Of a stretch of DNA of 64,000 nt, positions 49,353 to 64,000 are shown one piece after another. Made by a program: the position numbers and the translations under genes. The DNA is from Trypanosoma brucei (Eukaryota), in assembly GCA_000002445.1 (NCBI GenBank), contig CP000071.1:768001-832000 (forward strand), in the 5' to 3' direction. The stretch's first letter is position 1. Every line of letters starts with the position of its first letter. The notes under the pieces were generated by a model. That model was not told where the DNA came from and did no database searches. It saw only the letters and a program-made list of their open reading frames with translations.

Positions 49353-52300
49353 ATGAGCCAAAGCCGTGTTCCTATAAGGTATGGAGCCTTTATTCACCTC
49401 TCCTGCGACGAAGGGTACGTTACAGCGGGAGGGTTGGGTAATGAAGGGTTGTTCATACGGAACAAGAATGAGCTAAGCGACGATGCCGAGCCACTACCGC
49501 TTTTTGGGTTTGAAACAAGCGTTTTTCAGATCCTACCTCCAACAGTGGCTAAAGTCGCGGCAGAGGAGGGGTTGAGCAAAGGCAACCGGGCTCCAAACAG
49601 CAACCCTCTTTCGGACGGTGTCAGTAATATTTACTCGACACAACAGGTGACTTTCGGGCAATTGTTTGTGCTGGTCCATGCGGTGAGCCGCCTACACGTG
49701 GCGGCACTGCCGTCGGAACCTTCTGAGAGGGACCCTGACTGCGCCCGGCTTGTGCTCGCACCGCCTGGTGAAATTGAGCAAACCTTCTGCCAGTTTATCT
49801 TCACACCGCGTTACACAACGCACGGTGAAGGAGATGTCGTGTGCCGAGGTGATGAAGTATTGGTGCAGCTGTCCAGCATCCCTATATTCCTTCAAACTAC
49901 GGTGGTGTCACCTACACGCCCGGTAAAACACGAAACTTTTGGAAGTGCAAGCTTCCCCTACGAACCGACTGATGGATGTGGACGTGGGAACAGTTGGAGT
50001 GCTGGCACCCGTATGGCACTATCTGCTGTGTTGGGAGCACCAGAGGTTAACTTATCGGAGGCAAAAGCACTCGTTTTTGTTGTTGAGCGCTATGACATCG
50101 ATCGAGATAAAGCGGAACATCAACGTATTCTGCACCGCATCCCCCGGCCGTGCGTTTCCGCAGGTGTGCCGGTAATATTTTACCATCTCGAGCACAAGCG
50201 GGTACTGGCTACGAGTGTCGCAATGCCCCCTTGCCAAGGGGGTGGCAAGATTGGAGTGTCAGGCGTGGCGCCAAGGGGCAATGAAGGTGGTGGGGAACGC
50301 GATCATTTGCTCAAGACAAGACAGACTCACTCAGTGATGGGAAATGTTACCGTGATATGCCACGCTTCAGGGAGGTTTGCTGCGGCGGGGAGTTCGAAGT
50401 CGCAGGGAAGTGATTCCCATTCCGCAGGAGCGACAAGCCTCGACTCCGACCCATGTAGCACTAAAGGAAAGGCACCCGATGACCGTAAAAGGGTGAATGG
50501 TGTCGGTGGTGCCGCCCTCCCGCTCTTCGCAGTGGATAAGGGTGTAGCTGATGGAACGTTCAGTGAAGAGGGAGCCCTCAGCGGGTTGCAGTGCAGTTGC
50601 ACCGCTTTGTGGATATTAGAAAACGAGCAACCAACGGTAGGTGGGGCCGTGAATATGAATTCGGGAGTGTATCGCCTCCGTCAAGCCTGTTCTAACTTAT
50701 ACGTTGCTGTGGAAGGGTCAGCCGTTGATACTATACTTGAGGGGGACGGTTCTCCTGAGGGATCTGTTGTGTCGCAGAGGTCCTGTTGTAACCTCACTGG
50801 AGATATCGTAAACGAGGAGGGGGGTGATGTGGTTCGCCCCACAACGCTGTCCATGATTCCGCCACCACGTACACCGAAAGACCTTCAACGCACACTTTTC
50901 AGACTAAGCCCCATGTTTAACACAGATTGCGGGTATCTTATCGAGAATGACTGCTTGCTACTGCAGAACGTCGCCACAGACATGTATCTGTGCACAAGTG
51001 AGGGAAGTGAAACTCTTTCTCTATCATGGAAGCCATCAAATATTGATTTGATAGTCGTCCGAAGGGCCGCAACGGACGTCCAGGATAGCGTCCTATTTCT
51101 TTGGTCCCAATGTGAAACACTTAGTGGGTACCGTGATGCCTTCCAGGTACTGACAACGGAAGGAACGGCAACGCACCAGCAACAAACGGAAACGGACGGT
51201 GAACATGGACAGGGCAGGTATCCTTCGGCAGAAGGCTCAACCAGCCCCACTCTGATGGAAGGAAGAATGGCAATTGTATCGGATTATAATCACATTCCAG
51301 AAAGTTTTGTACGACCTAGCAAAACGTGCCCCAAAGGCAGTAACGTAGGTACTGGTTATGCTTCGCTTCTTCCGGTTATTTGTGCCTGCCAGCGTACACT
51401 CGCCGAGCTCATAATTTTTTGTTCAATCTCTCCTGAACGAAATGTTCTGCGAAGAGACGGCATACCTATCCCGAACCACCAGCATATGTTGGTTGAACTG
51501 TGCGTTCACCGCCTAGTTATTGATGTTATTCTCGCCCCCTTTTCAAAGTTTGGGGTGAGAGCTGACCGATCGGTGGGAAAGCATGCACAATGCTGCGGGC
51601 AGTGGGGCTGTTCTTCTTGGCTTCCACCGCTTCCACTGTCTGGCGGAGTGGTGGATGTTAACGACCTTTTACTGAAGATGCACCGAGAGATTCATATCGT
51701 CTGTCGTCTTGGTTTTCGACTCTTAAGGCAAATGGTCCGTCAAGCGCCGGAGCTCAAGGCAGGGTTTGAAAACTATATACCGTATTTTCTGGCTTTTGAC
51801 GGGTACAAGCTAGAGGTTGTCGATTCGCTGACAAGGCTCTTTTCGGAGAACCCCGCCGTGAGGAACTCATCTTTGGAACTTGTGGTTAATCACTACATCG
51901 CTGGCCTCCACCTCACGCGTTCCGGAAGATATCTGCAGTTGCTATGCTCCATGTGTTCTGTTGGGACCCACGGCGTGACGGAACGTCAGCGACTTGTGTG
52001 TCAAAAACTTCTCGTTGAAAATGCTAACGCATTGTACAGCTTTGTGCTTGATAGTGGCGGCGAGTGGGCCGTTAAAACTGACAAGGATGAACCGCCAATA
52101 CCGTGTAACATCCTTTTTTCAGGACAGCAACAAGACGGCGGAGAAGAGGAAGGAACGAAGCTGAGGGAATACGTGCAGAGCGAATTGGAGCTACTGGGTG
52201 CCCTGTGTCTGGATGGGTGCCCACCTTTATGTAGGGAAGAAGTAGCCAAAGTGTTCCCTTCACCAGTGCTCCTGATGGCTTTACGCAACTTTTCGCCGAA

Positions 52301-55300
52301 ATGGCCTGAAGTGAGCGACCGGTCGCGCGTCTGTGACGTTGTGCGGAGTCATTTAATACGTCTCGCAATGCACTGCTACATCCTTCCATATATCGATGAC
52401 CCAGCTGTGCAGCTACGCGAGGGCGCCGTCCTGCTAGGTTCCAGCAAGTTGCATCTCAAAGTCGATGAAAAAACAGCCTTCTCTGGCAAGCCGGACAGTG
52501 AACTCACCCAGGCTGTGAAAGAGGGAACACTCCACGTCATCCGTTCTAACACCCATTTTGTACGGTCTGACACAGGCCGTAGTATATTGATTCGTGCCGC
52601 ATTAGCGGCATGGCTGCGGTTCGTTAGTGCACATCAGGTTTCCGCCACGGAGACAGCCTGTCTGGTACCGTTGCTTCTAGAGCTTCTTGATAGTAGAGAC
52701 GACGAGGCTCACGACGGCAGCAGCAAAATAGCGGAATACACATGGACACGCCTTGAAGTATCCGAAGCGGGACTGCTCGTTGTTCGGGCTCGAGAGATGA
52801 TTTGTCAGATCCTTCTGCAAATTCTTGAGACCGCTACTTACCGCGCAGCAAATGAAATTAACCTACTGCTGCATGGTATTTTGGTTACTGACCACGGCGC
52901 CAGCCTCGCCCACCAGCACGATTATTGTTCGTTACTCCGCAGGGCGGACGTCTCTTCGACCGGAGACCCGTTTGTCACATCCCCAACCGAAAGAGACGCA
53001 CTGCTGTGGCACAAAGGCAAGGCCAATGACGGTAATGGAAACCGTTGCTTTGGATTGAACAGACGCAAGGGGCCCAGCGACTACCAGTCGACGGTAGCCG
53101 GTAGCGCCGTGACCACGCAGCTCAGTGGCTCCACAAAGGATGTTGCCGCCTTCTTAGATTACGTCAAAGGCATCTGCAGTTGCATCGTGCGCCCACTCCG
53201 TGTTGATCAGCTGGTACCACGGCTCGTCGATCTTGCACACCACGATGGATCACAATTGGCACCATACGCCATGGAGTTGCTCGTTCGAATCTGCACGGTG
53301 AGGCGCAGTGTGGCCCGTCTCGTGCTTCAAGTGCATCCTTTCCCCTCCTCCGAAGTGATTCAATGTTTTGACAATATGTATTTTGCTGCTGTTCAAGTGC
53401 GGTCATCATATATTCGAGGATCCGTGGAGGAGGCCATTGATGTTGCCCTCCAGGGCATCGACGGGTTAAGCACTCAAACTCAAAACGAGGTGACAGGCAC
53501 AACGAATGAGGGTAGAGTGGATGACGGAGGCACCGACGAGTACTATAATGATTTAACGGAGGATGACGAGGAGATCGAAGAAATAGGTATTTGTGAAGAA
53601 CAAGAAGTTGAGGCAAGCTCTTCGTCAGCCCCCGAAGACCAACATGAGGTCGGAGGGGAAAGCAAAGCACGGCGCCTGTGGTCAAAGGCAGCTGGTGCGG
53701 CCCGCATCGTTGTGTATCGAAACGCCATAATTGCACGCCGACGTTCTGTTGGACTAAGCGAAACGTCGCGCGTCCCGCTTCGCGTTGTTGTCCGTGCGGA
53801 GACAGTACGCCATTGGCAAGTGCACATAACTATGCTCGAAATGTACCCGTTCATCGGCCCGTCGAGCCCTGCGTTCAGCAAGTGGATGCGTTTCTTTTAT
53901 GTTTTCACGTTATCCCAAAGTAATGCCGAGTCGCTGAAGGCCTACATTGATATATTTATGGGGGCCTTCAACCTTAGCAGCAACTGCGTTGTTATGGGCC
54001 TCCATATTGTCCTCAGTATTCTCGCGACAATCAAAGATCCAACACCACACCTAACTGACGCATTTCTCCGCGAGTCCGCCCGTTACATTGATGGAGAAAT
54101 TGCTGCTCTTCACCCCGACGGAGAGTTTGCCACCAAGTTGGGTCTCCACGTCTTCACCAAGACCACGGTTGGGGGCATTCCGCGACGTCGTATGTTACAG
54201 CTGTTGCGTGACTATGATGCCTTCCGCTGCCTCCCCTCACCCGGAGTGACCGAGAAGCACGGGCGGGGTCGCTTCACAGCTTGCATCGTTGAGATGGTTT
54301 GCCGCATTTGCGGTACATCAATGGGTGCCGTGGCGCTGGGGCGGTCGGCTCTGCCAGTGACTCATCTCTTAGAAATCACGCTGAGCTATGGCACATCCTA
54401 CACCCCCCTGGTAGAGGTGCCGCGGCCCCGTGCATTGTGGGAAAGTAACTCGTTCCATCTTCTCGGTGCTTATCTGTTGGCGCTCGTGTCGCTCTACATT
54501 GCCGCGGGCGACGCAGGGGGAGACGGGGGTCGAAGACAACGGCAGATGGAATGGATGGCGAACCGTGACTGGTGGTCGGTTGTGCTTTTGCTTTCACGGC
54601 AGCTAAAAGAGCTCACACGGCTAATGCAGTCTAGAACAGAGACTGTGCTATGGCGGGGACGCCGCATTCTGCAGCGGTATCGCCGGTTGTGGCTTGTCAA
54701 TTTACCGCTGGCACTGTTAACTTTCATGACAGAATGTTTTAATGAGGCAGGTTTTTACAGGTACCGGGACGTTGTGGGAGCTACCTTCCACGAAATGTGT
54801 ATGAGTGTCGCCGGGTTTAGCGAAGTGCTCCTCGCAAGTGCTGATGCGATACGGCTGCAGGCAAGAGAGATGGTGGGTTACCGCCGCCTCGTGGCCCTTC
54901 TCCAGGTCCAGACGGGAAACCTCGTGGGTCACGAGCTTCTTTCAGGCACGATGTTGACGACGCGACGCAATCTACGACACGGCGTTATCTGCTACTATAA
55001 GAAAATAAATGAGGCCGAAGAAGAGGCCCGCGGACTACACCCGGACGCTCTCCTGTTGGCCGAGACCGGACCCCAGGCTGAAAACGACGGCATCCAGGGT
55101 GGTTTAATTGCAACAGCGGATGTACCCACGCACACACAAAACGATGCAGACGACTCGTCCCCTATGGGATTACTAATATCTGGTGCTGCGACGAAATGTC
55201 TTGATGCGGAGCGACTCCGTGGTGCACTGCGCAGTCTTGTGAACCGTGACCAACTGATCACCATGGAGGACAGCACGGACCTAGGTGAGCCGGCTGGGAT

Positions 55301-58300
55301 CATGAACGCCCTTTTGTTAAGCTGTCGAGAACGGTCAAATGTTCTAGACTTTGTGTCCACGACTCTCGGCTGCATGCGGGAGCGATCCTTTGGTTCCATC
55401 ACCCTTATTGGTATGCTAAACATTTTCTCCAATGCGCTACATACAGCACTCAGAGAACAGGAGAGAGAAAGACTGAAACATGTTAGTGCTGAGAACTCGT
55501 CGGTGATCACCGACATTTTTACGGTGAGGAGTTTTGAAACCGACTATGCAAAGGAGAATGCGGGAAGGCTACTGCAGACGACGTTCAGTGATCTCGGTGC
55601 AACGCGCGCTATTGCGTCCCTCTGCGCAGTGGACGACCAGGTAGTGGCCTACAGTGCTGTACAACTCTGTGTTGGTCTCCTCGAGGGTGGTAATGAGCAT
55701 GCCCAGAAAGCCCTTCTCGCATATTTCCAAGAGCACCAAGAGAGATTCTTTCACAACATTCGAGACATGCTTCACAAAGCCGTGGATTGGGTGCAGTGTA
55801 CCAACGCAGAACACCAGATCGTTGTGCTTGAGAGGGGTGGAGTGGTTCCTAACGTATCCAACGCACACGAATTCACCCGCATGCTTCTGACAAACGCACT
55901 CACCACGCCCCCATCGCTCTACAGCAGTCTAAAAGTGAGGGTCGGACGCGGTACAGCGGTTGCAAGAAGACGACTTTCCGCGTGGGACCGAGCAGGCGGA
56001 AGTCTCAACCAACGTTTCGTTTGCACCCTATTTCGTATGCTCCAGCTCTTCTGTGAAGGGCACAACCTCAGTATGCAGAACTACATCCGCTCGCAGTACG
56101 ATAATTTGCATAGCGTAAATGCTGTGCATGAAGTAATGAACCTCATTACGGAAATAGCCGCTGTTGTCCACCCGGCCACCGTCCGGATGCTTCAGAGTGC
56201 ATTCGCGCTCCTAACTGAGCTGTGCCAAGGGCCATGTCATGAAAATCAAGAGGCCCTGCTGGGTTACGGTGTGTGTGTCGTTATCAGCAAGTTGCTCAGC
56301 CGCCTGAATTTGCCGGACGTGACGGGCACTCCATCCACTGGAACAGGCATTACAAACTGGGGCGGCGGTGACAGCAACAGTACTGATAACAAGGCTTCGG
56401 TCGACTGCTGCACCCTGAATGAAACAGATAGCGAAGGCAACGCTTTTTTACGTCTACAAGGCGGCTTTTTACTAAGCAAGGACGATGCTGGAAACCTCCG
56501 TATTGCACTCACACAATGCCTACTCTCGCTTATCGAGGGATGTCGTTCACGGGACGTATTCCACCAACTGCTGGAACAGATTCCAGTCGAAGTTATCGAG
56601 CGCGAGCTAACCACGGTGGACCCAGGGGCGTACGACAGCATTCTTGAAAATGAGGAACTGGCGAGTGACCCGGGTGTGGAGGCCCTCTTCAACTGGCTTA
56701 TTTTCCTGAAGACTGTCAGACCGTACGCGGAGGCCGATTACTTGAAACGGATTGATGCAATGCTTCAGCACACAAATAAACTATGCACTCGCCTCGGATT
56801 CATTGAAATACAACGTGCGGATGGAATGCTGGAGAAAGTGCTGTTCCGCATTCCACACGTCTGGCGCGGGTTGATGCGTAGGAATAGGAAGCAGATGCTG
56901 GCGGAAATTAACTGCAGCAGTCGTGCAGCGAAGCTCGGAGACTTTATGTACCACAGTGACAACGTGATCTTTGAAGTGGAACGTAGCTATGCATTCCAGT
57001 GCTGGGTAGAGCGCCGCACACGCTGGAGGTTGGACAACAGAAGTAGCGGTTGGAGAGGTAAAGAGTGTGATGCCGGCAAAGTCGATACTTCAGTCGACGC
57101 AGGCAAACCTAGGTGGACCCCAAAATGGAAACAATGCTCAGATGCGCCCAAATATTTCTGGAACCATTTCATTGCACCCGTACTGTTTTGCACACACCTC
57201 GGTTTTTACGAGTACAGCTCCCTCCTCGTCGCTGTGGTTTTGAACATTGCTTTGATCAACGGCGAGGGGCGTCATCGGAATCTGGAAGAATCCCAGCTCT
57301 GGGCTAACATCATATCTGGCCTGTGTGTCCTGCAGCTTGTGTTGTCTTTAATTGCAATAACTGTGGATACTATTGTCTTTTTCCCGGTGTCGCTGTACGT
57401 ACACTACCGCCAGAAACAGCAGCGGTTTTCCGGGCGGGCGAAGTTCAACGAAACATTGCAAGGGGTTTTACGTGGGTTGAGTGCGAAAGAAATCAGTTTA
57501 CTGCTTGTGACGCGCTTCAGTTTCCAATATCGCTTACTTTTGGTTGTCATGGCGGTTTTAAGCATCTTCGTTTCATATTACTTTGCTGCCGCACACCTTA
57601 CGCTTATGGTTTACACGTTTCCCACACTTCGTACCTTTGTTAGCGCCATCACGCACAATGGCCGACAGTTACTCCTAACGGCCCTGCTTGGTGTCATGGG
57701 ATTGTATCTTTTTGCCATCGCGGGCCGCATTATGTTCCCTGAGCAATTCGGAAGCAACGGTGAGGTCGACGAAAACTCGGGGAAGAAAAACGACGAAAAT
57801 GGAAACTGCGACACATTGCTGCGCTGTTTTACATTTATTCTGTGGCAGGGGCTGCGGCAGGGTGGTGGCGTCGGGGATGTCATGGATGAGGTATCATGGA
57901 ATAGCTCAACACTTGTACCACGGGTGAGCTACGATCTCATTTTCTTCGCTCTTGTAAATGTTGTCTTCCTCAACATCATGTTTGGTATCATAATTGACAC
58001 TTTCGGTGAGTTGCGCGACGACCGACGAGAGAGGGAAAACGAACTGAGGAGCACCTGCTTTATCTGCGGCCTAGACGCGGACACACTTGAAAAGGGCCAA
58101 GTGGGCGGTTTCAGGGCTCATGTGGAAGACGCACACAATATGTGGATGTACCTTTACTTTATTCACTACCTCCGTCATAAGGACCCGAACGAGTTTACTG
58201 GTCAAGAGTCGTACGTCCACGAGAAGATTCAAAGGAATGACCTCTCCTTCTTTCCGGAGGAAGACTGTCTTGCGTTACAAGAATGCAGGGAGGGCAACGG

Positions 58301-58652
58301 CAAGAGAACTGGAGATGACGAGGCTGATAGTGATGACGAGCTTGCGAGCAGCGTTGTGGTAGGGGGCAGTGCACCACGCGGACCAAAGCCTGAGAGTGCA
58401 CATCCCGATACCGGTGTGAAACTTGTGTTGAAGGAGCTGGCAGCTGTGCGTGAAGCTGTCAGTGCCCTTGCGCGGGAGGCCACAATGGAAGGGGAGCGGA
58501 CGAGGGGACTCGCCCAGCAGCTAGAGCTCATAAACCGCAGCAGCCAGAGCTCATCACTGCGGAAGTTTCCCGGCGGGGGCAGCGCAGCATCGGTTGCTGA
58601 GACGAGCACAAGCAAGGGGACGTGGTTGCGGCACTCCGAACCAGAACACTAA
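49353..58652 (+). CDS. IP3R: Inositol 1,4,5-trisphosphate receptor / ryanodine-receptor-family intracellular Ca2+ release channel (3099 aa)
   Basis: The C-terminal channel domain has about 6 hydrophobic helices (e.g. FIAPVLFCTHLGFYEYSSLLVAVVLNIALING, LLLVVMAVLSIFVSYYF, LIFFALVNVVFLNIMFGIIIDTFGEL). The pore-loop selectivity filter is LRQGGGVGDVMD (GGGVGD is diagnostic of IP3R). This is followed by CFICGL and a coiled-coil tail. The giant N-terminal regulatory region matches the family's size. The exact length, 3099 aa, matches what I recall for the T. brucei acidocalcisomal TbIP3R. Confidence 0.93.
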   Translation: MSQSRVPIRYGAFIHLSCDEGYVTAGGLGNEGLFIRNKNELSDDAEPLPLFGFETSVFQILPPTVAKVAAEEGLSKGNRAPNSNPLSDGVSNIYSTQQVTFGQLFVLVHAVSRLHVAALPSEPSERDPDCARLVLAPPGEIEQTFCQFIFTPRYTTHGEGDVVCRGDEVLVQLSSIPIFLQTTVVSPTRPVKHETFGSASFPYEPTDGCGRGNSWSAGTRMALSAVLGAPEVNLSEAKALVFVVERYDIDRDKAEHQRILHRIPRPCVSAGVPVIFYHLEHKRVLATSVAMPPCQGGGKIGVSGVAPRGNEGGGERDHLLKTRQTHSVMGNVTVICHASGRFAAAGSSKSQGSDSHSAGATSLDSDPCSTKGKAPDDRKRVNGVGGAALPLFAVDKGVADGTFSEEGALSGLQCSCTALWILENEQPTVGGAVNMNSGVYRLRQACSNLYVAVEGSAVDTILEGDGSPEGSVVSQRSCCNLTGDIVNEEGGDVVRPTTLSMIPPPRTPKDLQRTLFRLSPMFNTDCGYLIENDCLLLQNVATDMYLCTSEGSETLSLSWKPSNIDLIVVRRAATDVQDSVLFLWSQCETLSGYRDAFQVLTTEGTATHQQQTETDGEHGQGRYPSAEGSTSPTLMEGRMAIVSDYNHIPESFVRPSKTCPKGSNVGTGYASLLPVICACQRTLAELIIFCSISPERNVLRRDGIPIPNHQHMLVELCVHRLVIDVILAPFSKFGVRADRSVGKHAQCCGQWGCSSWLPPLPLSGGVVDVNDLLLKMHREIHIVCRLGFRLLRQMVRQAPELKAGFENYIPYFLAFDGYKLEVVDSLTRLFSENPAVRNSSLELVVNHYIAGLHLTRSGRYLQLLCSMCSVGTHGVTERQRLVCQKLLVENANALYSFVLDSGGEWAVKTDKDEPPIPCNILFSGQQQDGGEEEGTKLREYVQSELELLGALCLDGCPPLCREEVAKVFPSPVLLMALRNFSPKWPEVSDRSRVCDVVRSHLIRLAMHCYILPYIDDPAVQLREGAVLLGSSKLHLKVDEKTAFSGKPDSELTQAVKEGTLHVIRSNTHFVRSDTGRSILIRAALAAWLRFVSAHQVSATETACLVPLLLELLDSRDDEAHDGSSKIAEYTWTRLEVSEAGLLVVRAREMICQILLQILETATYRAANEINLLLHGILVTDHGASLAHQHDYCSLLRRADVSSTGDPFVTSPTERDALLWHKGKANDGNGNRCFGLNRRKGPSDYQSTVAGSAVTTQLSGSTKDVAAFLDYVKGICSCIVRPLRVDQLVPRLVDLAHHDGSQLAPYAMELLVRICTVRRSVARLVLQVHPFPSSEVIQCFDNMYFAAVQVRSSYIRGSVEEAIDVALQGIDGLSTQTQNEVTGTTNEGRVDDGGTDEYYNDLTEDDEEIEEIGICEEQEVEASSSSAPEDQHEVGGESKARRLWSKAAGAARIVVYRNAIIARRRSVGLSETSRVPLRVVVRAETVRHWQVHITMLEMYPFIGPSSPAFSKWMRFFYVFTLSQSNAESLKAYIDIFMGAFNLSSNCVVMGLHIVLSILATIKDPTPHLTDAFLRESARYIDGEIAALHPDGEFATKLGLHVFTKTTVGGIPRRRMLQLLRDYDAFRCLPSPGVTEKHGRGRFTACIVEMVCRICGTSMGAVALGRSALPVTHLLEITLSYGTSYTPLVEVPRPRALWESNSFHLLGAYLLALVSLYIAAGDAGGDGGRRQRQMEWMANRDWWSVVLLLSRQLKELTRLMQSRTETVLWRGRRILQRYRRLWLVNLPLALLTFMTECFNEAGFYRYRDVVGATFHEMCMSVAGFSEVLLASADAIRLQAREMVGYRRLVALLQVQTGNLVGHELLSGTMLTTRRNLRHGVICYYKKINEAEEEARGLHPDALLLAETGPQAENDGIQGGLIATADVPTHTQNDADDSSPMGLLISGAATKCLDAERLRGALRSLVNRDQLITMEDSTDLGEPAGIMNALLLSCRERSNVLDFVSTTLGCMRERSFGSITLIGMLNIFSNALHTALREQERERLKHVSAENSSVITDIFTVRSFETDYAKENAGRLLQTTFSDLGATRAIASLCAVDDQVVAYSAVQLCVGLLEGGNEHAQKALLAYFQEHQERFFHNIRDMLHKAVDWVQCTNAEHQIVVLERGGVVPNVSNAHEFTRMLLTNALTTPPSLYSSLKVRVGRGTAVARRRLSAWDRAGGSLNQRFVCTLFRMLQLFCEGHNLSMQNYIRSQYDNLHSVNAVHEVMNLITEIAAVVHPATVRMLQSAFALLTELCQGPCHENQEALLGYGVCVVISKLLSRLNLPDVTGTPSTGTGITNWGGGDSNSTDNKASVDCCTLNETDSEGNAFLRLQGGFLLSKDDAGNLRIALTQCLLSLIEGCRSRDVFHQLLEQIPVEVIERELTTVDPGAYDSILENEELASDPGVEALFNWLIFLKTVRPYAEADYLKRIDAMLQHTNKLCTRLGFIEIQRADGMLEKVLFRIPHVWRGLMRRNRKQMLAEINCSSRAAKLGDFMYHSDNVIFEVERSYAFQCWVERRTRWRLDNRSSGWRGKECDAGKVDTSVDAGKPRWTPKWKQCSDAPKYFWNHFIAPVLFCTHLGFYEYSSLLVAVVLNIALINGEGRHRNLEESQLWANIISGLCVLQLVLSLIAITVDTIVFFPVSLYVHYRQKQQRFSGRAKFNETLQGVLRGLSAKEISLLLVTRFSFQYRLLLVVMAVLSIFVSYYFAAAHLTLMVYTFPTLRTFVSAITHNGRQLLLTALLGVMGLYLFAIAGRIMFPEQFGSNGEVDENSGKKNDENGNCDTLLRCFTFILWQGLRQGGGVGDVMDEVSWNSSTLVPRVSYDLIFFALVNVVFLNIMFGIIIDTFGELRDDRRERENELRSTCFICGLDADTLEKGQVGGFRAHVEDAHNMWMYLYFIHYLRHKDPNEFTGQESYVHEKIQRNDLSFFPEEDCLALQECREGNGKRTGDDEADSDDELASSVVVGGSAPRGPKPESAHPDTGVKLVLKELAAVREAVSALAREATMEGERTRGLAQQLELINRSSQSSSLRKFPGGGSAASVAETSTSKGTWLRHSEPEH

Positions 58653-60597
58653 TTTACCGTGCTGGAAGAAGCTCACGGAGGAAAGCGATGACACGCGGTT
58701 CTTCAACTAGAGCTAAAGCACAGGTGTTTAGTCCTATACTCGAACAGAAGTATACACATAAATATATATATATATATTCATTGATATGTTCTTGATTCAC
58801 AAACATCCGGAATGTTACTGAGCCGATTTGACGCTGATAGTGGCGTGTTTCTATCGTTATTTTTTTTTCGTAAACAAGAAAAGTTGTTACCCATGATCGT
58901 GTGGGGTGCTGTAACGCACGTATAATCCCCAGCGGTGCATTCTATTATCGTTTATTTTGACCTTTTTTTCTGTTCCTTAAACCCCCCACGCGTACGTTGT
59001 TTGATCGGAAGGAATGAACAAGTGAGAAAGCAAAGTGTACATCTATGCGTTCGCCGCAACTTGCATTAATATTAGCTTGGTTACTTAACCGTTCGTATCA
59101 CTCTCCCTCACGTGCACTAATGTTTAGTCCCCTGCTTTAGGTTGATTTTTATTTTTTGTTACACATCAGTGGCCCTTTCTAACCTCGTACTTGACACGCG
59201 ACACATTACTGCGAGTGCTCTTCTTTTCTCGCTTGAGCAAGTGATGAGGTTTTTTCCCCCATCCCTTCAAGCAATCAACTCTATCTTCTTTTCTCATTAA
59301 CACGGCTGGCTATTCGGTGACATTCCAGCACCGAACAGTCAGTGATGTGATGTCGGGATCTTCTGTCGTACATATGCTGCATTTGAAGGTACTTTCCACA
59401 CCTGATTTCGTCACTGATGCCCAACTACCAGCAGACAGTTGGGAACCCCACGCAATCAGAAAGTAAGTGATGTACAGTTTCTTGTGGTCCACGGACTGCT
59501 TGGGAAGTGCCGGGTGAAATTTTTGGTCATAAAGACCAGCCTCTCGTACTACTTTCATAATGCCTGGCCCCATCGAGGTTCTGAATACAACGGGACTTGT
59601 GCTATGATGCGCCTCTCGGCGATAAGAGGACCACGTGGTGGGGGTTGCAGTTGAGCTCAAGTGGGGGTAAAAATGGTTCTGAGCCTCGTGTTCACGGTGA
59701 TTCTCAAGATTTGTAAATCCCATAAGTCTGGTATCACAGTTGGGACGCTTTTGTTGTTGTTTGTTGACAGATTGCCGTCGCACTATCACTGATGGATCTG
59801 CCTCTAGTATAACTGGATCAAATCCTTTGTCCTGTGCAAGATCTCCTTTAGTGGAACCTACGTGGGTACTCCGCCCCGAGAAGCGTCGCAGAAATACCGC
59901 AGGTTTGCACACTCATTCACAGTCCAGTATTTCCTGTCCCGGACCTCAGAGTCCCGGCGCGTTGCACTTGCAATATGTACCGAATCTGACCTTTCAGGGA
60001 CTTCGTTAGGTATTGGGCTCTTGCTGCTGAGACCAAAAGACTTGATGCTGCATGTTTAACGACGGCGGGTAGCCTTCTGTGGTCCGCGATACTATTCAAT
60101 GCTAGTGATTAGGTGTTCTTTACTCTTGTGCTCCCCCCTCCTTCGTCGCGGCACCGTGGTAAAAGTATCGGCGGGCGTACTGCTTTCACTGGTGGTCGCT
60201 GTTGCCGTTGTTACATTTGCTCCCCTACAAGCGCTAATACCCTTTTGTTGTTGTTCTTTTCCTGTTTATCTTGGTGTTCCATACGAATACATACGTGCGG
60301 TAAAGAATAGTTTCAACTCAGTCGACTTCTTCACGGCGGTCCGCATATACGTACACGTGTACGCTCCATCTCGTCAACGCACAGAGGCAACACAAAAGGA
60401 AGAGCACTTGCGCAAGGAAACAAAGAGGAAAGAAGGTTCAAAGCAGTCAGTTGATATACATACGTATATACAGTTTGCGCGGTACAACGGACAGTGAAAC
60501 AAAGGGGATCTTGCTCGTTTTGGCCGATTTGTTTTTGTACTCGCCGAAACTCCGTCTTGCTGCATCTCTTTGTAAGTTGTTGACAAACATCTGTAAG

Positions 60598-61518
60598 ATG
60601 GGAGACTCGATATCACCTTCGGAATTACTTCCAGGGCACGCTGGGGAAGAACATTTCTTATCACTTGAAGAAGGAACGACTCCGCAGGTCCACCGGCAGG
60701 AAGTGACTACAGATGCAATGACAAACCTTCAACGGCGTAACGTTTATGTCTCTGGCCTCCCGGAAACGTACCGTGCTTCCGAGTTTCGTGATCTGTGTCA
60801 GTCGTTCGGTCGGGTGGAGGCGTCGAAACTCTGCGTTGACAGTAAGTGCCGGCCGGCGAAGGGTTATGGTTTTGCACTTTTCTTCGAGGAGGAGGACGCA
60901 TTGAAGTGCATCGAAGGACTTAACGGCCGAGTGCTTATGGGCGGCCGACCGTTGCAAGCACGAATAGCAGACGCCGCTGCAGCGCCCGCGCCACTGGACC
61001 CATCAATAGCCCACCCGCCCATTAGCCGCACGCGTCAGGGAATGAAAAGTCACCACCGACAGCTTGGCGCAAGCATCAGCAGCGGAAGCGGTCCTCTCGA
61101 CAGCTCCATCGTTCTCGGGCGGAGCATGTCCTTTTCCTCTCGAGATGATCTTACAGGCTCACAACTCGGGCTCGCAACAGCACTCATCCCGGGAACCGGA
61201 ACCCCATCGGCCCCGACAGCTCTGCACGCACCGATGCAAGCGCCAATTCACGGTGCAGGGGTCACACAACCACCAGGGGCCGTTGGTTACTCACTCGCGC
61301 CGTTCCCTGTGCCTGGTGGCTACATGCCTGTTGGGCACTCCTTCATTCCGCAACAAACTGTTGGCATGCCTCTATTTGTGACTATGCCACAAACCGCGCC
61401 CGTCTCCACTACTGTTGCACAGCAGGTCGTCGTCCCGACGACAGCAATTGTCGCACCGAACGGCTATACACCACAGCTTTGTTCATCGCTGGTGTATCCT
61501 CCGGTTCGAATGGAGTGA
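60598..61518 (+). CDS. RBP10: Single-RRM RNA-binding protein with a low-complexity P/A/Q/V-rich C-terminus; likely the RBP10 orthologue
   Basis: The RRM has RNP2 VYVSGL and RNP1 KGYGFALFF inside NVYVSGLPETYRASEFRDLCQSFGRVEASKLCVDSKCRPAKGYGFALFFEEEDALKCIEGLNGRVLMGGRPLQARIAD. The first ATG (MGDSIS) is at 60598. The track start at 60451 is a TTG. Its position directly downstream of the IP3R and the long repeat-rich sequence after it fit the T. brucei RBP10 locus as I remember it. The gene name is inference. Confidence 0.7.
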   Translation: MGDSISPSELLPGHAGEEHFLSLEEGTTPQVHRQEVTTDAMTNLQRRNVYVSGLPETYRASEFRDLCQSFGRVEASKLCVDSKCRPAKGYGFALFFEEEDALKCIEGLNGRVLMGGRPLQARIADAAAAPAPLDPSIAHPPISRTRQGMKSHHRQLGASISSGSGPLDSSIVLGRSMSFSSRDDLTGSQLGLATALIPGTGTPSAPTALHAPMQAPIHGAGVTQPPGAVGYSLAPFPVPGGYMPVGHSFIPQQTVGMPLFVTMPQTAPVSTTVAQQVVVPTTAIVAPNGYTPQLCSSLVYPPVRME

Positions 61519-62683
61519 TGGCACAGAGGGTAACGAAGTAGGAATTTTTGCCGCCAGCTGAGGTCGTTTACCTTGGGTTGGCTGTCATGGAGATAGGGAA
61601 GAGAGAAGCAACATCGCGTGCAAGGAAAAACGAACAGAAGAATCGATCCCTCCCCCCTCCATGAGTCCTTCTTCGTTTATAATTTCGGCTGTTGTTTTTG
61701 CTGTCACCTTTTTTTTTCTTCCTTCTCGTTCGCCACACCCTCTCCTCAACCTCCTTTACCTCCATGGATCTCTCGGCAGCAGTCCCCCTCCCCTCATTCC
61801 CCTCATGTTTTGGTGGTCGCCTTATTGGCACCTCTTTTCGTCATTTTTTCCCCCCACTTGCTGCAGTTCAAGGCGTATTTGTGGGGAGAGTAAAGAACAT
61901 AAGTGAAATCTGAAAACAATAGAAAAGAGAGATGAATTAATTAATGAATGAATGGGAGAAATAAGGAGGAGAGGTGGTGGAGAGCTGGGGAACTGTAATG
62001 AAGAAGAAAAAAAAGAAGAACGAGGGAAAGGTAGATTCAGTGGGGGAGACAAAACAGTGAAGAAGAATCTGGCGGAAAGCAACAATAAGTGTGAAAATGA
62101 GAACGAAGGTGTGAATGATTCTTCAGTTTAAGAAACCACACGTGAAGAAGGACAGAATATATAAATAAATATATCTATTTATATGTTGATGTCTCAGAAG
62201 AAAAAAAGCAAAGGAGGGGAGATAGAAGAGGTTTAAAGGGAGGAAGGAAGACAGGCCCTGAAACCAATAAAACAAAATAAATAAATAAAGAAACGCGAAA
62301 TCAAAACTGAAAATGCGAAAAAAAAAACGAAGAACAAGAAGGGTGCAATGAAGGAATGAACTCCACAGAGAGAATACCCGTTCAAACATTCTTTTCTTCG
62401 TTTTTCCCCTCCTCCTCTCCCCGACGCAACCGCCCCCCTTTTTTTTCTATAATTGGCTCTTCTGACCCACACCCCCTCACTTTCCTTCTCAAAGAACGGC
62501 ATCTTGTTTTCCCACCCTTTATTATTGTTAATTTCTTTTTTCGCTTTACTATTATTATTATTATTTACCACCCCATCACCGTTACTTTTAGTTGTTTTTT
62601 TTTTTTTTATGCCTCTCTCCTTTCATTTTTTTGCGCTTTTGCTCCTCCTTATTGGTTATGTAGAGCGATTTATATAAATCTAA

Positions 62684-62704
62684 TATATATATATATATAT
62701 ATAT
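62684..62704. repeat. (AT)10 microsatellite
   Basis: atatatatatatatatatata. Confidence 0.85.
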
Positions 62705-62976
62705 TTGTATTCATATATTTTATGTCTTATATACATAACTACTTTCGCGCAGAAAAGGGAAAGAGGAAAGGAGAAGAAGGGGGAAAATAGAAAGCCCATG
62801 CACATATATATATATATATATTTATTTATTTGTTTATTTATTTATATATATATATATATGTATTCTTTGTACCTCCCTTTCGTTTTTACTTTGTTTTTTG
62901 TTTTACCTTTTTTTTGTTTCTACTTTGTTTCTTGTTTTGTTTACTGTTAGTCACTCCTTACTATTTTTACCGCCTC

Positions 62977-63112
62977 TATTATTATCACTATTATTATTAT
63001 TATTATTACTATTATTATTCCTATTATTATTATTATTATTCCTATTATTATTATTATTATTATTCCTATTATTATTATTATTCCTATTACTACTGCTATT
63101 ATTATTGTTATT
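62977..63112. repeat. Imperfect (ATT)n / (TTA)n trinucleotide repeat, about 135 nt
   Basis: tattattatcactattattattattattattactattattattcctattattattattattattcct... It produces spurious poly-Y/poly-L ORFs in the track. Confidence 0.9.
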
Positions 63113-64000
63113 TCTGGGGCTACTGCAGTGCTTTCCCTTTCTTTTTCTTTGGGTGTTCGCGTGGTTGAGATTGTGATGTGACTTCTGTTTGCTGACGATT
63201 GTTTGTTTCTATTTGATTGTGCCGGTGTCTGTTTTCCCCCACCCCCGTGATGTCACGAAGAAAAACAAAAATTAAATTGAAAAGTTTTTACTTCTCCTCG
63301 TCCAAAGCAATTGCTCTCCTCCTTCCTTTTCTCCACACGCGCGCACGTACGTAGTGAACTAATCAAAGAGTGAAGAAATAAAAATAAAAACACGCGTCGT
63401 GTTGTGGATCCCTTTTTCGGATCCAATTTGCGCTATTGCTTTTTTTTGTTAGTATTATTGTTTTGTGCTTTTTTTTTTCTTTTTCTGTGTGTGTAATATG
63501 ATTTTGTCGCTTTTCATTCAGCGGAAGCAGACAGTAAAGTTATGGGCTCATATGCTTGCATGTGCATTCCATCCGATATTGCGCGGGAGTTGTTGTTTTG
63601 TTTTGTTTTTCACACCTTCGTCCCTTTTTTTTTTCTTTTTGGTTTTTATTGTTTGTATATATTTTCATATTTATGTACATATATTAGGAGCAAATGCATG
63701 CGTGTTTGTGCTTTAACGCCCATGTGTGCGCCCCTTGGCTTGCTTTCCCACAAATACCCTTTCGAAACGCCTTACGGAAGCGGGGACAATATAATTAAGA
63801 AGAAAGGGAGATGGGGGGGAAAAAAAAAAGAGAAAGAGAAAGAGAAACACCGGCTCGTAGACATGAGGAGAGGAATCAAAAAAAAGACAATGAAATGAAA
63901 TAAAGTTAAGTGAAGTGAATTGAAACGAGGTAAGAATTTAAGAAGTTAAGAAAGCTGGTGACCCGCCGTCGCTTTTCTACTTCATTCCACTCTTTTTTTT

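Follow-up and report, generated by a model that had tools for sequence, protein, structure and literature searches.

Trypanosome genes are transcribed polycistronically, and the expression of RBP10 is therefore set post-transcriptionally, via its own 3' untranslated region (3'-UTR). Here we describe positions 60598-64000 of a 64,000-nt stretch of Trypanosoma brucei DNA (assembly GCA_000002445.1, contig CP000071.1, positions 768,001 to 832,000 of the forward strand; this whole stretch is referred to as the window), which with near certainty comprise the RBP10 gene and the first 2482 nt of its roughly 7.3-kb 3'-UTR. RBP10 is a single-RRM protein that is produced only in mammalian-infective forms, promotes the bloodstream-form state, and binds and represses mRNAs carrying the motif UA(U)6 (PMC5568443).

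The dissection of this UTR by Bishola Tshitenge, Reichert, Liu & Clayton (2022; PMC8982893) put its length at 7.3 kb and that of the mRNA at 8.5 kb, by RNA-seq and Northern blot, and found the UTR alone to be sufficient for developmental regulation when CAT took the place of the RBP10 open reading frame (ORF). Each of the four 2-kb quarters of the UTR gave low reporter activity in procyclic forms; the authors concluded that it contains at least six independent elements and proposed that very long UTRs are a 'fail-safe'. The PGKC 3'-UTR, described in the same study, is likewise bloodstream-form-specific via more than one independent region without a shared short motif, but it is far smaller: its regulatory regions number two and measure 125 and 153 nt, compared with at least six regions in the 7.3-kb RBP10 UTR. 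RBP10 is also an exemplar of long UTRs rich in poly-purine as well as poly-pyrimidine tracts, both in a 2024 report (PMC11405848) and in the 2026 preprint of Bravo Ruiz, Tinti & Horn ('P5-UTR' or zipper). AGO1-dependent thermo-regulation has been claimed for the P5-UTR class, and for RBP10 control by ZC3H11 and AGO1 has been suggested and a temperature 'zipper' proposed (bioRxiv 10.64898/2026.01.20.700697). The gene, its UTR, the redundancy and the block-and-repeat architecture are thus already published.

The RBP10 gene and its published 3'-UTR

The coding sequence (CDS) of RBP10 (Tb927.8.2780) occupies 60598-61518 on the + strand, 306 aa followed by a TGA stop. An exact-sequence look-up found the protein to be identical to XP_847111.1/AAZ13045.1 of T. 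brucei brucei TREU927, deposited as 'RNA-binding protein RBP10, putative [T. brucei brucei TREU927]'. The mechanical ORF list opened the same frame at a TTG (60451; 355 aa), but starting at the ATG (60598) yields precisely the 306-aa protein deposited. Residues 49-115 (60742-60942, + strand) match Pfam PF00076, RRM_1 (E 3.5e-13; 49.7 bits against a cut-off of 20.7), and the Pfam scan of the protein found no second family besides this one match. Orthologues share 73% identity in T. congolense, 48% in T. vivax and 46% in T. cruzi, while the near-identical proteins of T. b. gambiense and T. equiperdum fall into one protein cluster with the window ORF; between T. b. gambiense and the window, 2 of the 921 nt of the CDS differ. 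The original prediction, made from the letters of the window, had seen an RRM gene of 306 aa and called it RBP10-like. Both the length and the single RRM_1 were borne out, and the full-length identity to the TREU927 protein makes the gene more than RBP10-like, with RBP10 and not another RRM protein as the best match. Judged from the sequence, the bloodstream-form specificity and the repression of UA(U)6 mRNAs published for RBP10 should apply to the window gene.

The DNA downstream of the stop codon is the published UTR. By exact string match to the sequences in S1 Text of PMC8982893, 61519-63518 is published fragment 1 (nt 1-2000) and 63519-64000 the subsequent 482 nt of the full UTR; on the + strand, 61519-64000 corresponds to nt 1-2482 of about 7300, and a window coordinate equals the UTR position plus 61518. 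Compared with the published system, the protein is identical, 2482 of 2482 nt agree, and F1, its sub-fragments F1.1-F1.4 and the beginning of F2.1 fall straight onto the window; the only difference is that the window stops at UTR nt 2482. It covers one third of the UTR, and fragments 2.2, 3 and 4 and the poly(A) site fall outside. S1 Text itself contains a one-base mismatch at UTR nt about 808 (window about 62326), where the 'Full sequence' has GAAGAAGAAGAAGGG and the 'fragment 1' listing has, as does the window, GAAGAACAAGAAGGG, possibly a strain difference or a typing error.

Single-molecule fluorescence in situ hybridisation indicated that about 70% of RBP10 mRNAs in wild-type cells exceed 7.5 kb, shorter isoforms being a minority that accumulate only on DRBD18 depletion (PMC9380746). 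These lengths, together with the published 7.3-kb UTR and 8.5-kb mRNA, uphold the unusually long 3'-UTR that had been supposed for this gene and place its polyadenylation site far beyond the few hundred nt past the stop. The next gene with a Pfam domain in the T. b. gambiense record begins 8.8 kb past the RBP10 stop, and the primers for the Tb927.8.2790 pseudogene map 8.1 kb past it. Across the 2482 nt, T. b. gambiense differs by 18 substitutions and 14 indels, the indels lying nearly all in homopolymers or microsatellites; by this comparison, 61519-64000 behaves like non-coding sequence. Nothing in the analysis contradicts the identification of RBP10, and the caveats given below bear on mechanism only.

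Regulating fragments, repeats and sequence blocks

We placed the published reporter fragments on the window by shifting the coordinates of S2 Table (PMC8982893) by the exact-match offset; the fragments all lie on the + strand, as do the repeats and blocks described with them. F1.1 spans 61519-62136 (UTR 1-618) and has a pyrimidine block (61669-61853) and a purine block (61895-62093). F1.2 (62116-62800; UTR 598-1282) has a purine block (62206-62357), pyrimidine blocks (62396-62647) and (AU)11, and F1.3 (62757-63290; UTR 1239-1772) has (AU)9, a (UUUA)n run, (AU)8, a U-rich block and (AUU)n. F1.4 (63284-63518; UTR 1766-2000) is largely non-repetitive. F2.1 (63519-64050; UTR 2001-2532) is cut by the window end at 64000, and its first 482 nt are present, with a purine block at 63789-63934. 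F1.1, F1.2 and F1.4 each gave at least 4-fold regulation and bloodstream-form-specific expression, the F1.2 reporter being developmentally regulated and high in bloodstream forms, and F1.3 is the sole F1 sub-fragment absent from those reported to confer developmental regulation (PMC8982893). The shortest regulating fragment is F1.4 (234 nt), whose halves F1.4.1 and F1.4.2, meeting at 63392, both lose regulation, and F2.1 decreased procyclic reporter activity with little change in RNA, which the authors read as translational repression (PMC8982893). Structure of F1.4 was considered as the cause of the lost activity in the halves and rejected (z -1.25; 25 of 200 shuffles fold as well); small hairpins are predicted at about 63390-63402 and 63406-63424, next to the cut, and the folding overall is not significant.

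Repeats were identified with Tandem Repeats Finder (TRF) and regular expressions, with 500 dinucleotide-preserving shuffles as the null, in which neither (AT)8 nor (ATT)4 occurred once. The region 61519-64000 is 35% T and 28% A; in the CDS each of the two makes up 21-22%. Within F1.2 the sole long AU repeat is (AT)11, that is (AU)11, at 62683-62704; (AU)11 is listed in F1.2 by the authors, and we take this to be the array deleted in their F1.2 experiment, in which bloodstream-form reporter expression fell drastically, an effect that was context-dependent (PMC8982893). F1.3, for which (AU)9 and (AU)8 are listed (PMC8982893), contains a composite (AU)9 - (AUUU/UUUA) run - (AU)8 at 62804-62859 (TRF row 62804-62863), made up of (AT)9 at 62804-62821, an (ATTT)/(TTTA) run at about 62819-62845 and (AT)8 at 62844-62859, all by TRF and regular expression. 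The latter located (AT)8 at 62804, 62806 and 62844 and TTTATTTA at 62821, 62833 and 62837. TRF also reported (TTA)6.7 at 62546-62565 and, at 62977-63112, a 136-nt array that may be written (AUU)n, (UUA)n or (UAU)n (period 3, 45.3 copies, 78% matches), with about 45 units and CCU/ACU interruptions. The (AT)n, (TTTA)n and roughly 135-nt (ATT)n repeats of the original prediction are therefore all present. Just upstream of (AUU)n, in the U-rich block, a 34-nt unit, TACCTCCCTTTCGTTTCTACTTTGTTTCTTGTTT, occurs twice in tandem with 82% identity (62870-62938). The (AUU)n array is the most variable spot of the 2482 nt relative to T. b. gambiense, where deletions of 24, 3 and 12 nt shorten it by 39 nt and 5 substitutions are clustered in it.

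A scan for UA(U)6 (UAUUUUUU), which had been proposed as one way to look for stage-regulatory motifs, found no match in 61519-64000 (1.06 expected) and just one across all 8.8 kb downstream of RBP10 in T. b. gambiense. We rejected RBP10 autoregulation through UA(U)6 as a candidate, and these counts make it unlikely. Classical AU-rich elements were likewise rejected, not being enriched outside one microsatellite: AUUUA pentamers numbered 9 in 61519-64000 compared with 9.4 expected, and of the 6 copies of UAUUUAU (0.7 expected) 4 lie within the (AUUU)n microsatellite at 62819-62845. The UAUUUAU excess resembles metazoan AU-rich elements (AUUUA / UUAUUUAUU), but AUUUA overall is unenriched and we found no evidence for the (AUUU)n run destabilising mRNA. 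The motif (TTA)4 gave 10 overlapping matches across 61519-64000; they lie at 62552 and from 62991 to 63069, most of them in the (AUU)n array. The presence of (UUA)4 in the RBP10 3'-UTR, heat-inducible RBP10 and possible control by ZC3H11 have been reported (bioRxiv 10.64898/2026.01.20.700697), and the two arrays at 62546-62565 and 62977-63112 are like the (UUA)n elements of HSP70 and chaperone 3'-UTRs that are thought to be bound by ZC3H11. RBP10 is no chaperone, however, and the array at 62977-63112 lies in F1.3, which has no reported developmental regulation, heat being outside that study. The (AUU)n array is a candidate ZC3H11-type (UUA)4 element and in that role would recruit ZC3H11; we found no binding data for this array in the literature.

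Biased blocks were measured as 60-nt windows with at least 70% purine or at least 70% pyrimidine, a proxy distinct from the FIMO motif densities of the P5-UTR authors. By this measure they cover 57% of 61519-64000, compared with 1.2% in shuffles and about 2% in the CDS of RBP10 and of the inositol 1,4,5-trisphosphate receptor (IP3R), with a share of 1-39% in ten other intergenic regions of the window. The alternation of U-rich and purine-rich blocks is real and pronounced, with four purine and seven pyrimidine blocks; besides those named above, pyrimidine-rich sequence lies at 62851-63088, 63439-63496 and 63597-63658 and purine-rich sequence at 62752-62795. The UTR is like the P5-UTR class in being longer than 2 kb (2482 nt in the window alone), in its blocks, in folding better than shuffles, in its three (AU)8-11 arrays as palindromes and in the potential complementarity between tracts; it differs in that its folding excess is independent of block order. 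The 2482 nt fold to -630 kcal/mol compared with -582 +/- 10 in dinucleotide shuffles (z -4.7), but z is only -0.6 against shuffles of the order of 60-nt blocks, which suggests that the excess comes from the composition blocks and not from an evolved fold. Of the 740 pairs predicted by the minimum free energy model, 266 run between a purine and a pyrimidine block; the (AU)n arrays self-pair and only 6 bases of the (AUU)n array are paired. The predicted folding agrees with potentially complementary tracts and gives a specific evolved structure no support, and a search of 58600-64000 on both strands returned no Rfam match at E up to 1. As a mechanism, the A/G-rich blocks would act as translation-enhancing poly-purine tracts that the U/C-rich blocks counteract, purine and pyrimidine blocks may anneal into a temperature-sensitive secondary structure (the 'zipper' or P5-UTR hypothesis), and several different RNA-binding proteins might read individual UTR fragments redundantly, as in the authors' 'fail-safe' idea.

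Alternative readings of the region

That the ORF encodes another single-RRM protein is virtually inconceivable, since its full-length sequence equals the deposited TREU927 RBP10 and the nearest non-kinetoplastid match is an ELAV-like protein with only 32% identity over 39% of the query. A protein-coding gene within 61519-64000 is extremely improbable. A T. b. gambiense gene call of 108 aa (L006:12201-12527, about window 62798-63124) would suggest one, and mechanical ORFs of 81-144 aa do exist in the region, but these are low-complexity repeat translations, and Pfam matched none of the five that were tested. The 108-aa translation, MHIYIYIY...YYYYYYYYYYSYYY... (including YYYYYYYY), is (AU)n and (AUU)n read through into poly-IY and poly-Y, and indels of 2, 2 and 1 nt between T. 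b. gambiense and the window shift the frame inside the call, so that we regard it as an annotation artefact. The original prediction, that no ORF lies downstream, thus holds in the sense that there is no credible protein gene between 61.5 and 64 kb, but not for the mechanical ORFs, which reach 144 aa. We also think it quite unlikely that part of 61.5-64 kb gives a separate product, either an lncRNA (long non-coding RNA) or a short mRNA arising from internal trans-splicing and polyadenylation. In favor of such a product, the window part of the UTR has seven polypyrimidine tracts that are 15 nt or longer and have an AG downstream. The internal tract CTTTCCCTTTCTTTTTCTTT at 63131-63150 (+ strand), whose first AG follows 18 nt downstream, is a candidate for a cryptic signal of trans-splicing and polyadenylation. 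The UTR is known to have several internal polypyrimidine tracts whose use as processing signals is prevented by DRBD18, so that full-length mRNA is made and exported; on DRBD18 depletion by RNA interference they are used, and progressively shorter RBP10 mRNAs accumulate (PMC9380746). Reporter mRNAs were also shorter than expected, by about 400 nt for F1 and about 290-360 nt for F1.3 (S2 Table, PMC8982893). We infer from this that, within the accuracy of Northern sizing, their 3' ends lie near 62934-63116, around (AUU)n and immediately upstream of the 63131-63150 tract, which points to an internal poly(A) signal that can be used. In contrast, the dominant species in wild-type cells is the 8.5-kb mRNA (PMC8982893), and about 70% of molecules have the length given above. 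The lncRNA KS17gene_1750a, whose coordinates we did not locate, is said to be embedded in the RBP10 3'-UTR, but the DRBD3 paper takes it as reflecting RBP10 mRNA processing (PMC12592628), and a further lncRNA, KS17gene_1751a, maps 7.5 kb past the stop, outside the window. A more specific idea, to which we give little credence, is that the (AUU)n array (62977-63112) and the tract at 63131-63150 form a switch point that yields or stabilises a short-UTR isoform of RBP10, about 1.5 kb in size; the trigger could be that ZC3H11 or some similar protein binds the array at fever temperature, or that a cryptic poly(A) site is used at this point. If true, the short isoform would be without F1.4 and all downstream repressive elements, and temperature or DRBD18 activity would be tied to RBP10 dosage.

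Within the RBP10 UTR, it is a possibility of some weight, if not the one we favor, that (AUU)n, (UUUA)n and the (AU)n arrays of F1.3 are neutral products of slippage, with regulation residing in non-repetitive or block sequences. All of these arrays lie in F1.3, outside the reported regulating fragments; between T. b. brucei and T. b. gambiense, (AUU)n shows a length difference of 39 nt as well as several substitutions, most UTR indels being in repeats; AUUUA is not enriched; and (AU)10 put into an actin UTR had no effect (PMC8982893). Against neutrality stand the drastic drop in bloodstream forms when F1.2 loses its AU repeat (PMC8982893), the strong enrichment of (UUA)4 in heat-shock mRNAs thought to be controlled by ZC3H11 together with the heat-inducibility of RBP10 (bioRxiv 10.64898/2026.01.20.700697), and the predicted single-stranded state of (AUU)n, as expected of a protein-binding platform. 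Of the repeats expected to hold instability elements, (AU)11 lies in the regulating fragment F1.2, and (AUU)n, (UUUA)n and two (AU)n arrays lie in F1.3. Multiple redundant elements are supported by the six independent regions of the reporter dissection, but no short motif accompanies them and the one AU repeat tested acts positively in bloodstream forms. Several caveats bear on how the UTR acts. The conspicuous repeats are not demonstrated to be the instability elements; MEME and DREME found no shared motif, and sub-fragments sometimes behave unlike their parents, activity being context-dependent (PMC8982893). The fragments in the window have no assigned trans-acting factor, and the vanishing of the folding excess under block-order shuffling leaves the model with no evidence for a specific evolved fold. 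With a reportedly embedded lncRNA and with shorter isoforms, the transcripts over this DNA are not necessarily all full-length mRNA.

Neighbouring sequence, other trypanosomes and significance

The gene directly upstream of RBP10 on the same strand encodes IP3R (49353-58652, + strand; 3099 aa), in agreement with the synteny on which the original prediction rested. Its ORF has the Pfam domains Ins145_P3_rec (2.8e-67), RIH_assoc, Ion_trans and RYDR_ITPR, and the gene upstream of RBP10 is named Tb927.8.2770 (PMC9380746). The IP3R-RBP10 order recurs in 5 further Trypanosoma records (T. equiperdum, T. b. gambiense, T. cruzi, T. theileri and T. conorhini); the exact contig look-up with the window's own ORF gave no record, and the order was read from the T. 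equiperdum and T. b. gambiense cluster members and from the distant orthologues. From the polycistronic organisation, the intergenic region (58653-60597, + strand) should contain the 3'-UTR of IP3R and the 5'-UTR of RBP10, together with the polypyrimidine tract and the trans-splice acceptor that serve RBP10. It is 98.9% identical to T. b. gambiense, and no ORF within it has a Pfam match. Two copies of UAUUUUUU, the RBP10 binding motif, lie on its + strand at 58858-58865 and 59150-59157, 200-500 nt past the IP3R stop and hence in the presumptive IP3R 3'-UTR, so that IP3R mRNA may be a candidate RBP10 target; across the whole window UA(U)6 occurs 16 times on both strands compared with 3.3 expected. 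Automated gene calls of 137 aa in T. equiperdum and T. b. gambiense (L001:8713-9126 and L006:8713-9126; window 59310-59723, - strand) and of 115 aa (L006:9502-9849; window about 60099-60446, + strand) also fall in this region. These calls are probably spurious annotations, because the corresponding window ORFs have no Pfam match and one is antisense to the polycistron.

Extended gene-free sequence downstream of RBP10 is also found outside the T. brucei group. In T. cruzi (L003:10991-17748) 6758 nt follow the RBP10 orthologue, with a GC content of 0.38 and 46% in biased blocks; no ORF in this gap has a Pfam match above the cut-off, and a Sid-5 match (18.8 bits compared with a cut-off of 27) was taken as chance. 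T. theileri (L004:11168-18770) has a gap of about 7.6 kb without a called gene, including 3170 N. A blastn search with the 2482 nt as query found nothing at E <= 1e-5 in the corresponding downstream sequence from T. vivax, T. cruzi, T. theileri and T. conorhini, which restricts any alignment or covariation test of UTR elements to the T. brucei group. The finding of a gene-free, block-rich region in T. cruzi without sequence similarity hints that the extended architecture of the UTR is older than the life cycle of African trypanosomes. The T. equiperdum contig (L001) ends at UTR nt 1086 (window 62604), inside a T14 run, and the T. vivax and T. conorhini contigs end 1045 and 850 nt past the RBP10 stop. 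Short-read assemblies appear to break in the low-complexity RBP10 UTR, and annotated UTR and gap lengths in those genomes are therefore unreliable.

The most visible repeats lie outside the fragments demonstrated to confer stage regulation, which is a warning against reading function from their appearance. With the published functional fragments now placed on window coordinates, there is an experimental map to start from instead of repeat appearance. RBP10 is the switch by which T. brucei is kept mammalian-infective, and the control of RBP10 itself sits in its 3'-UTR.

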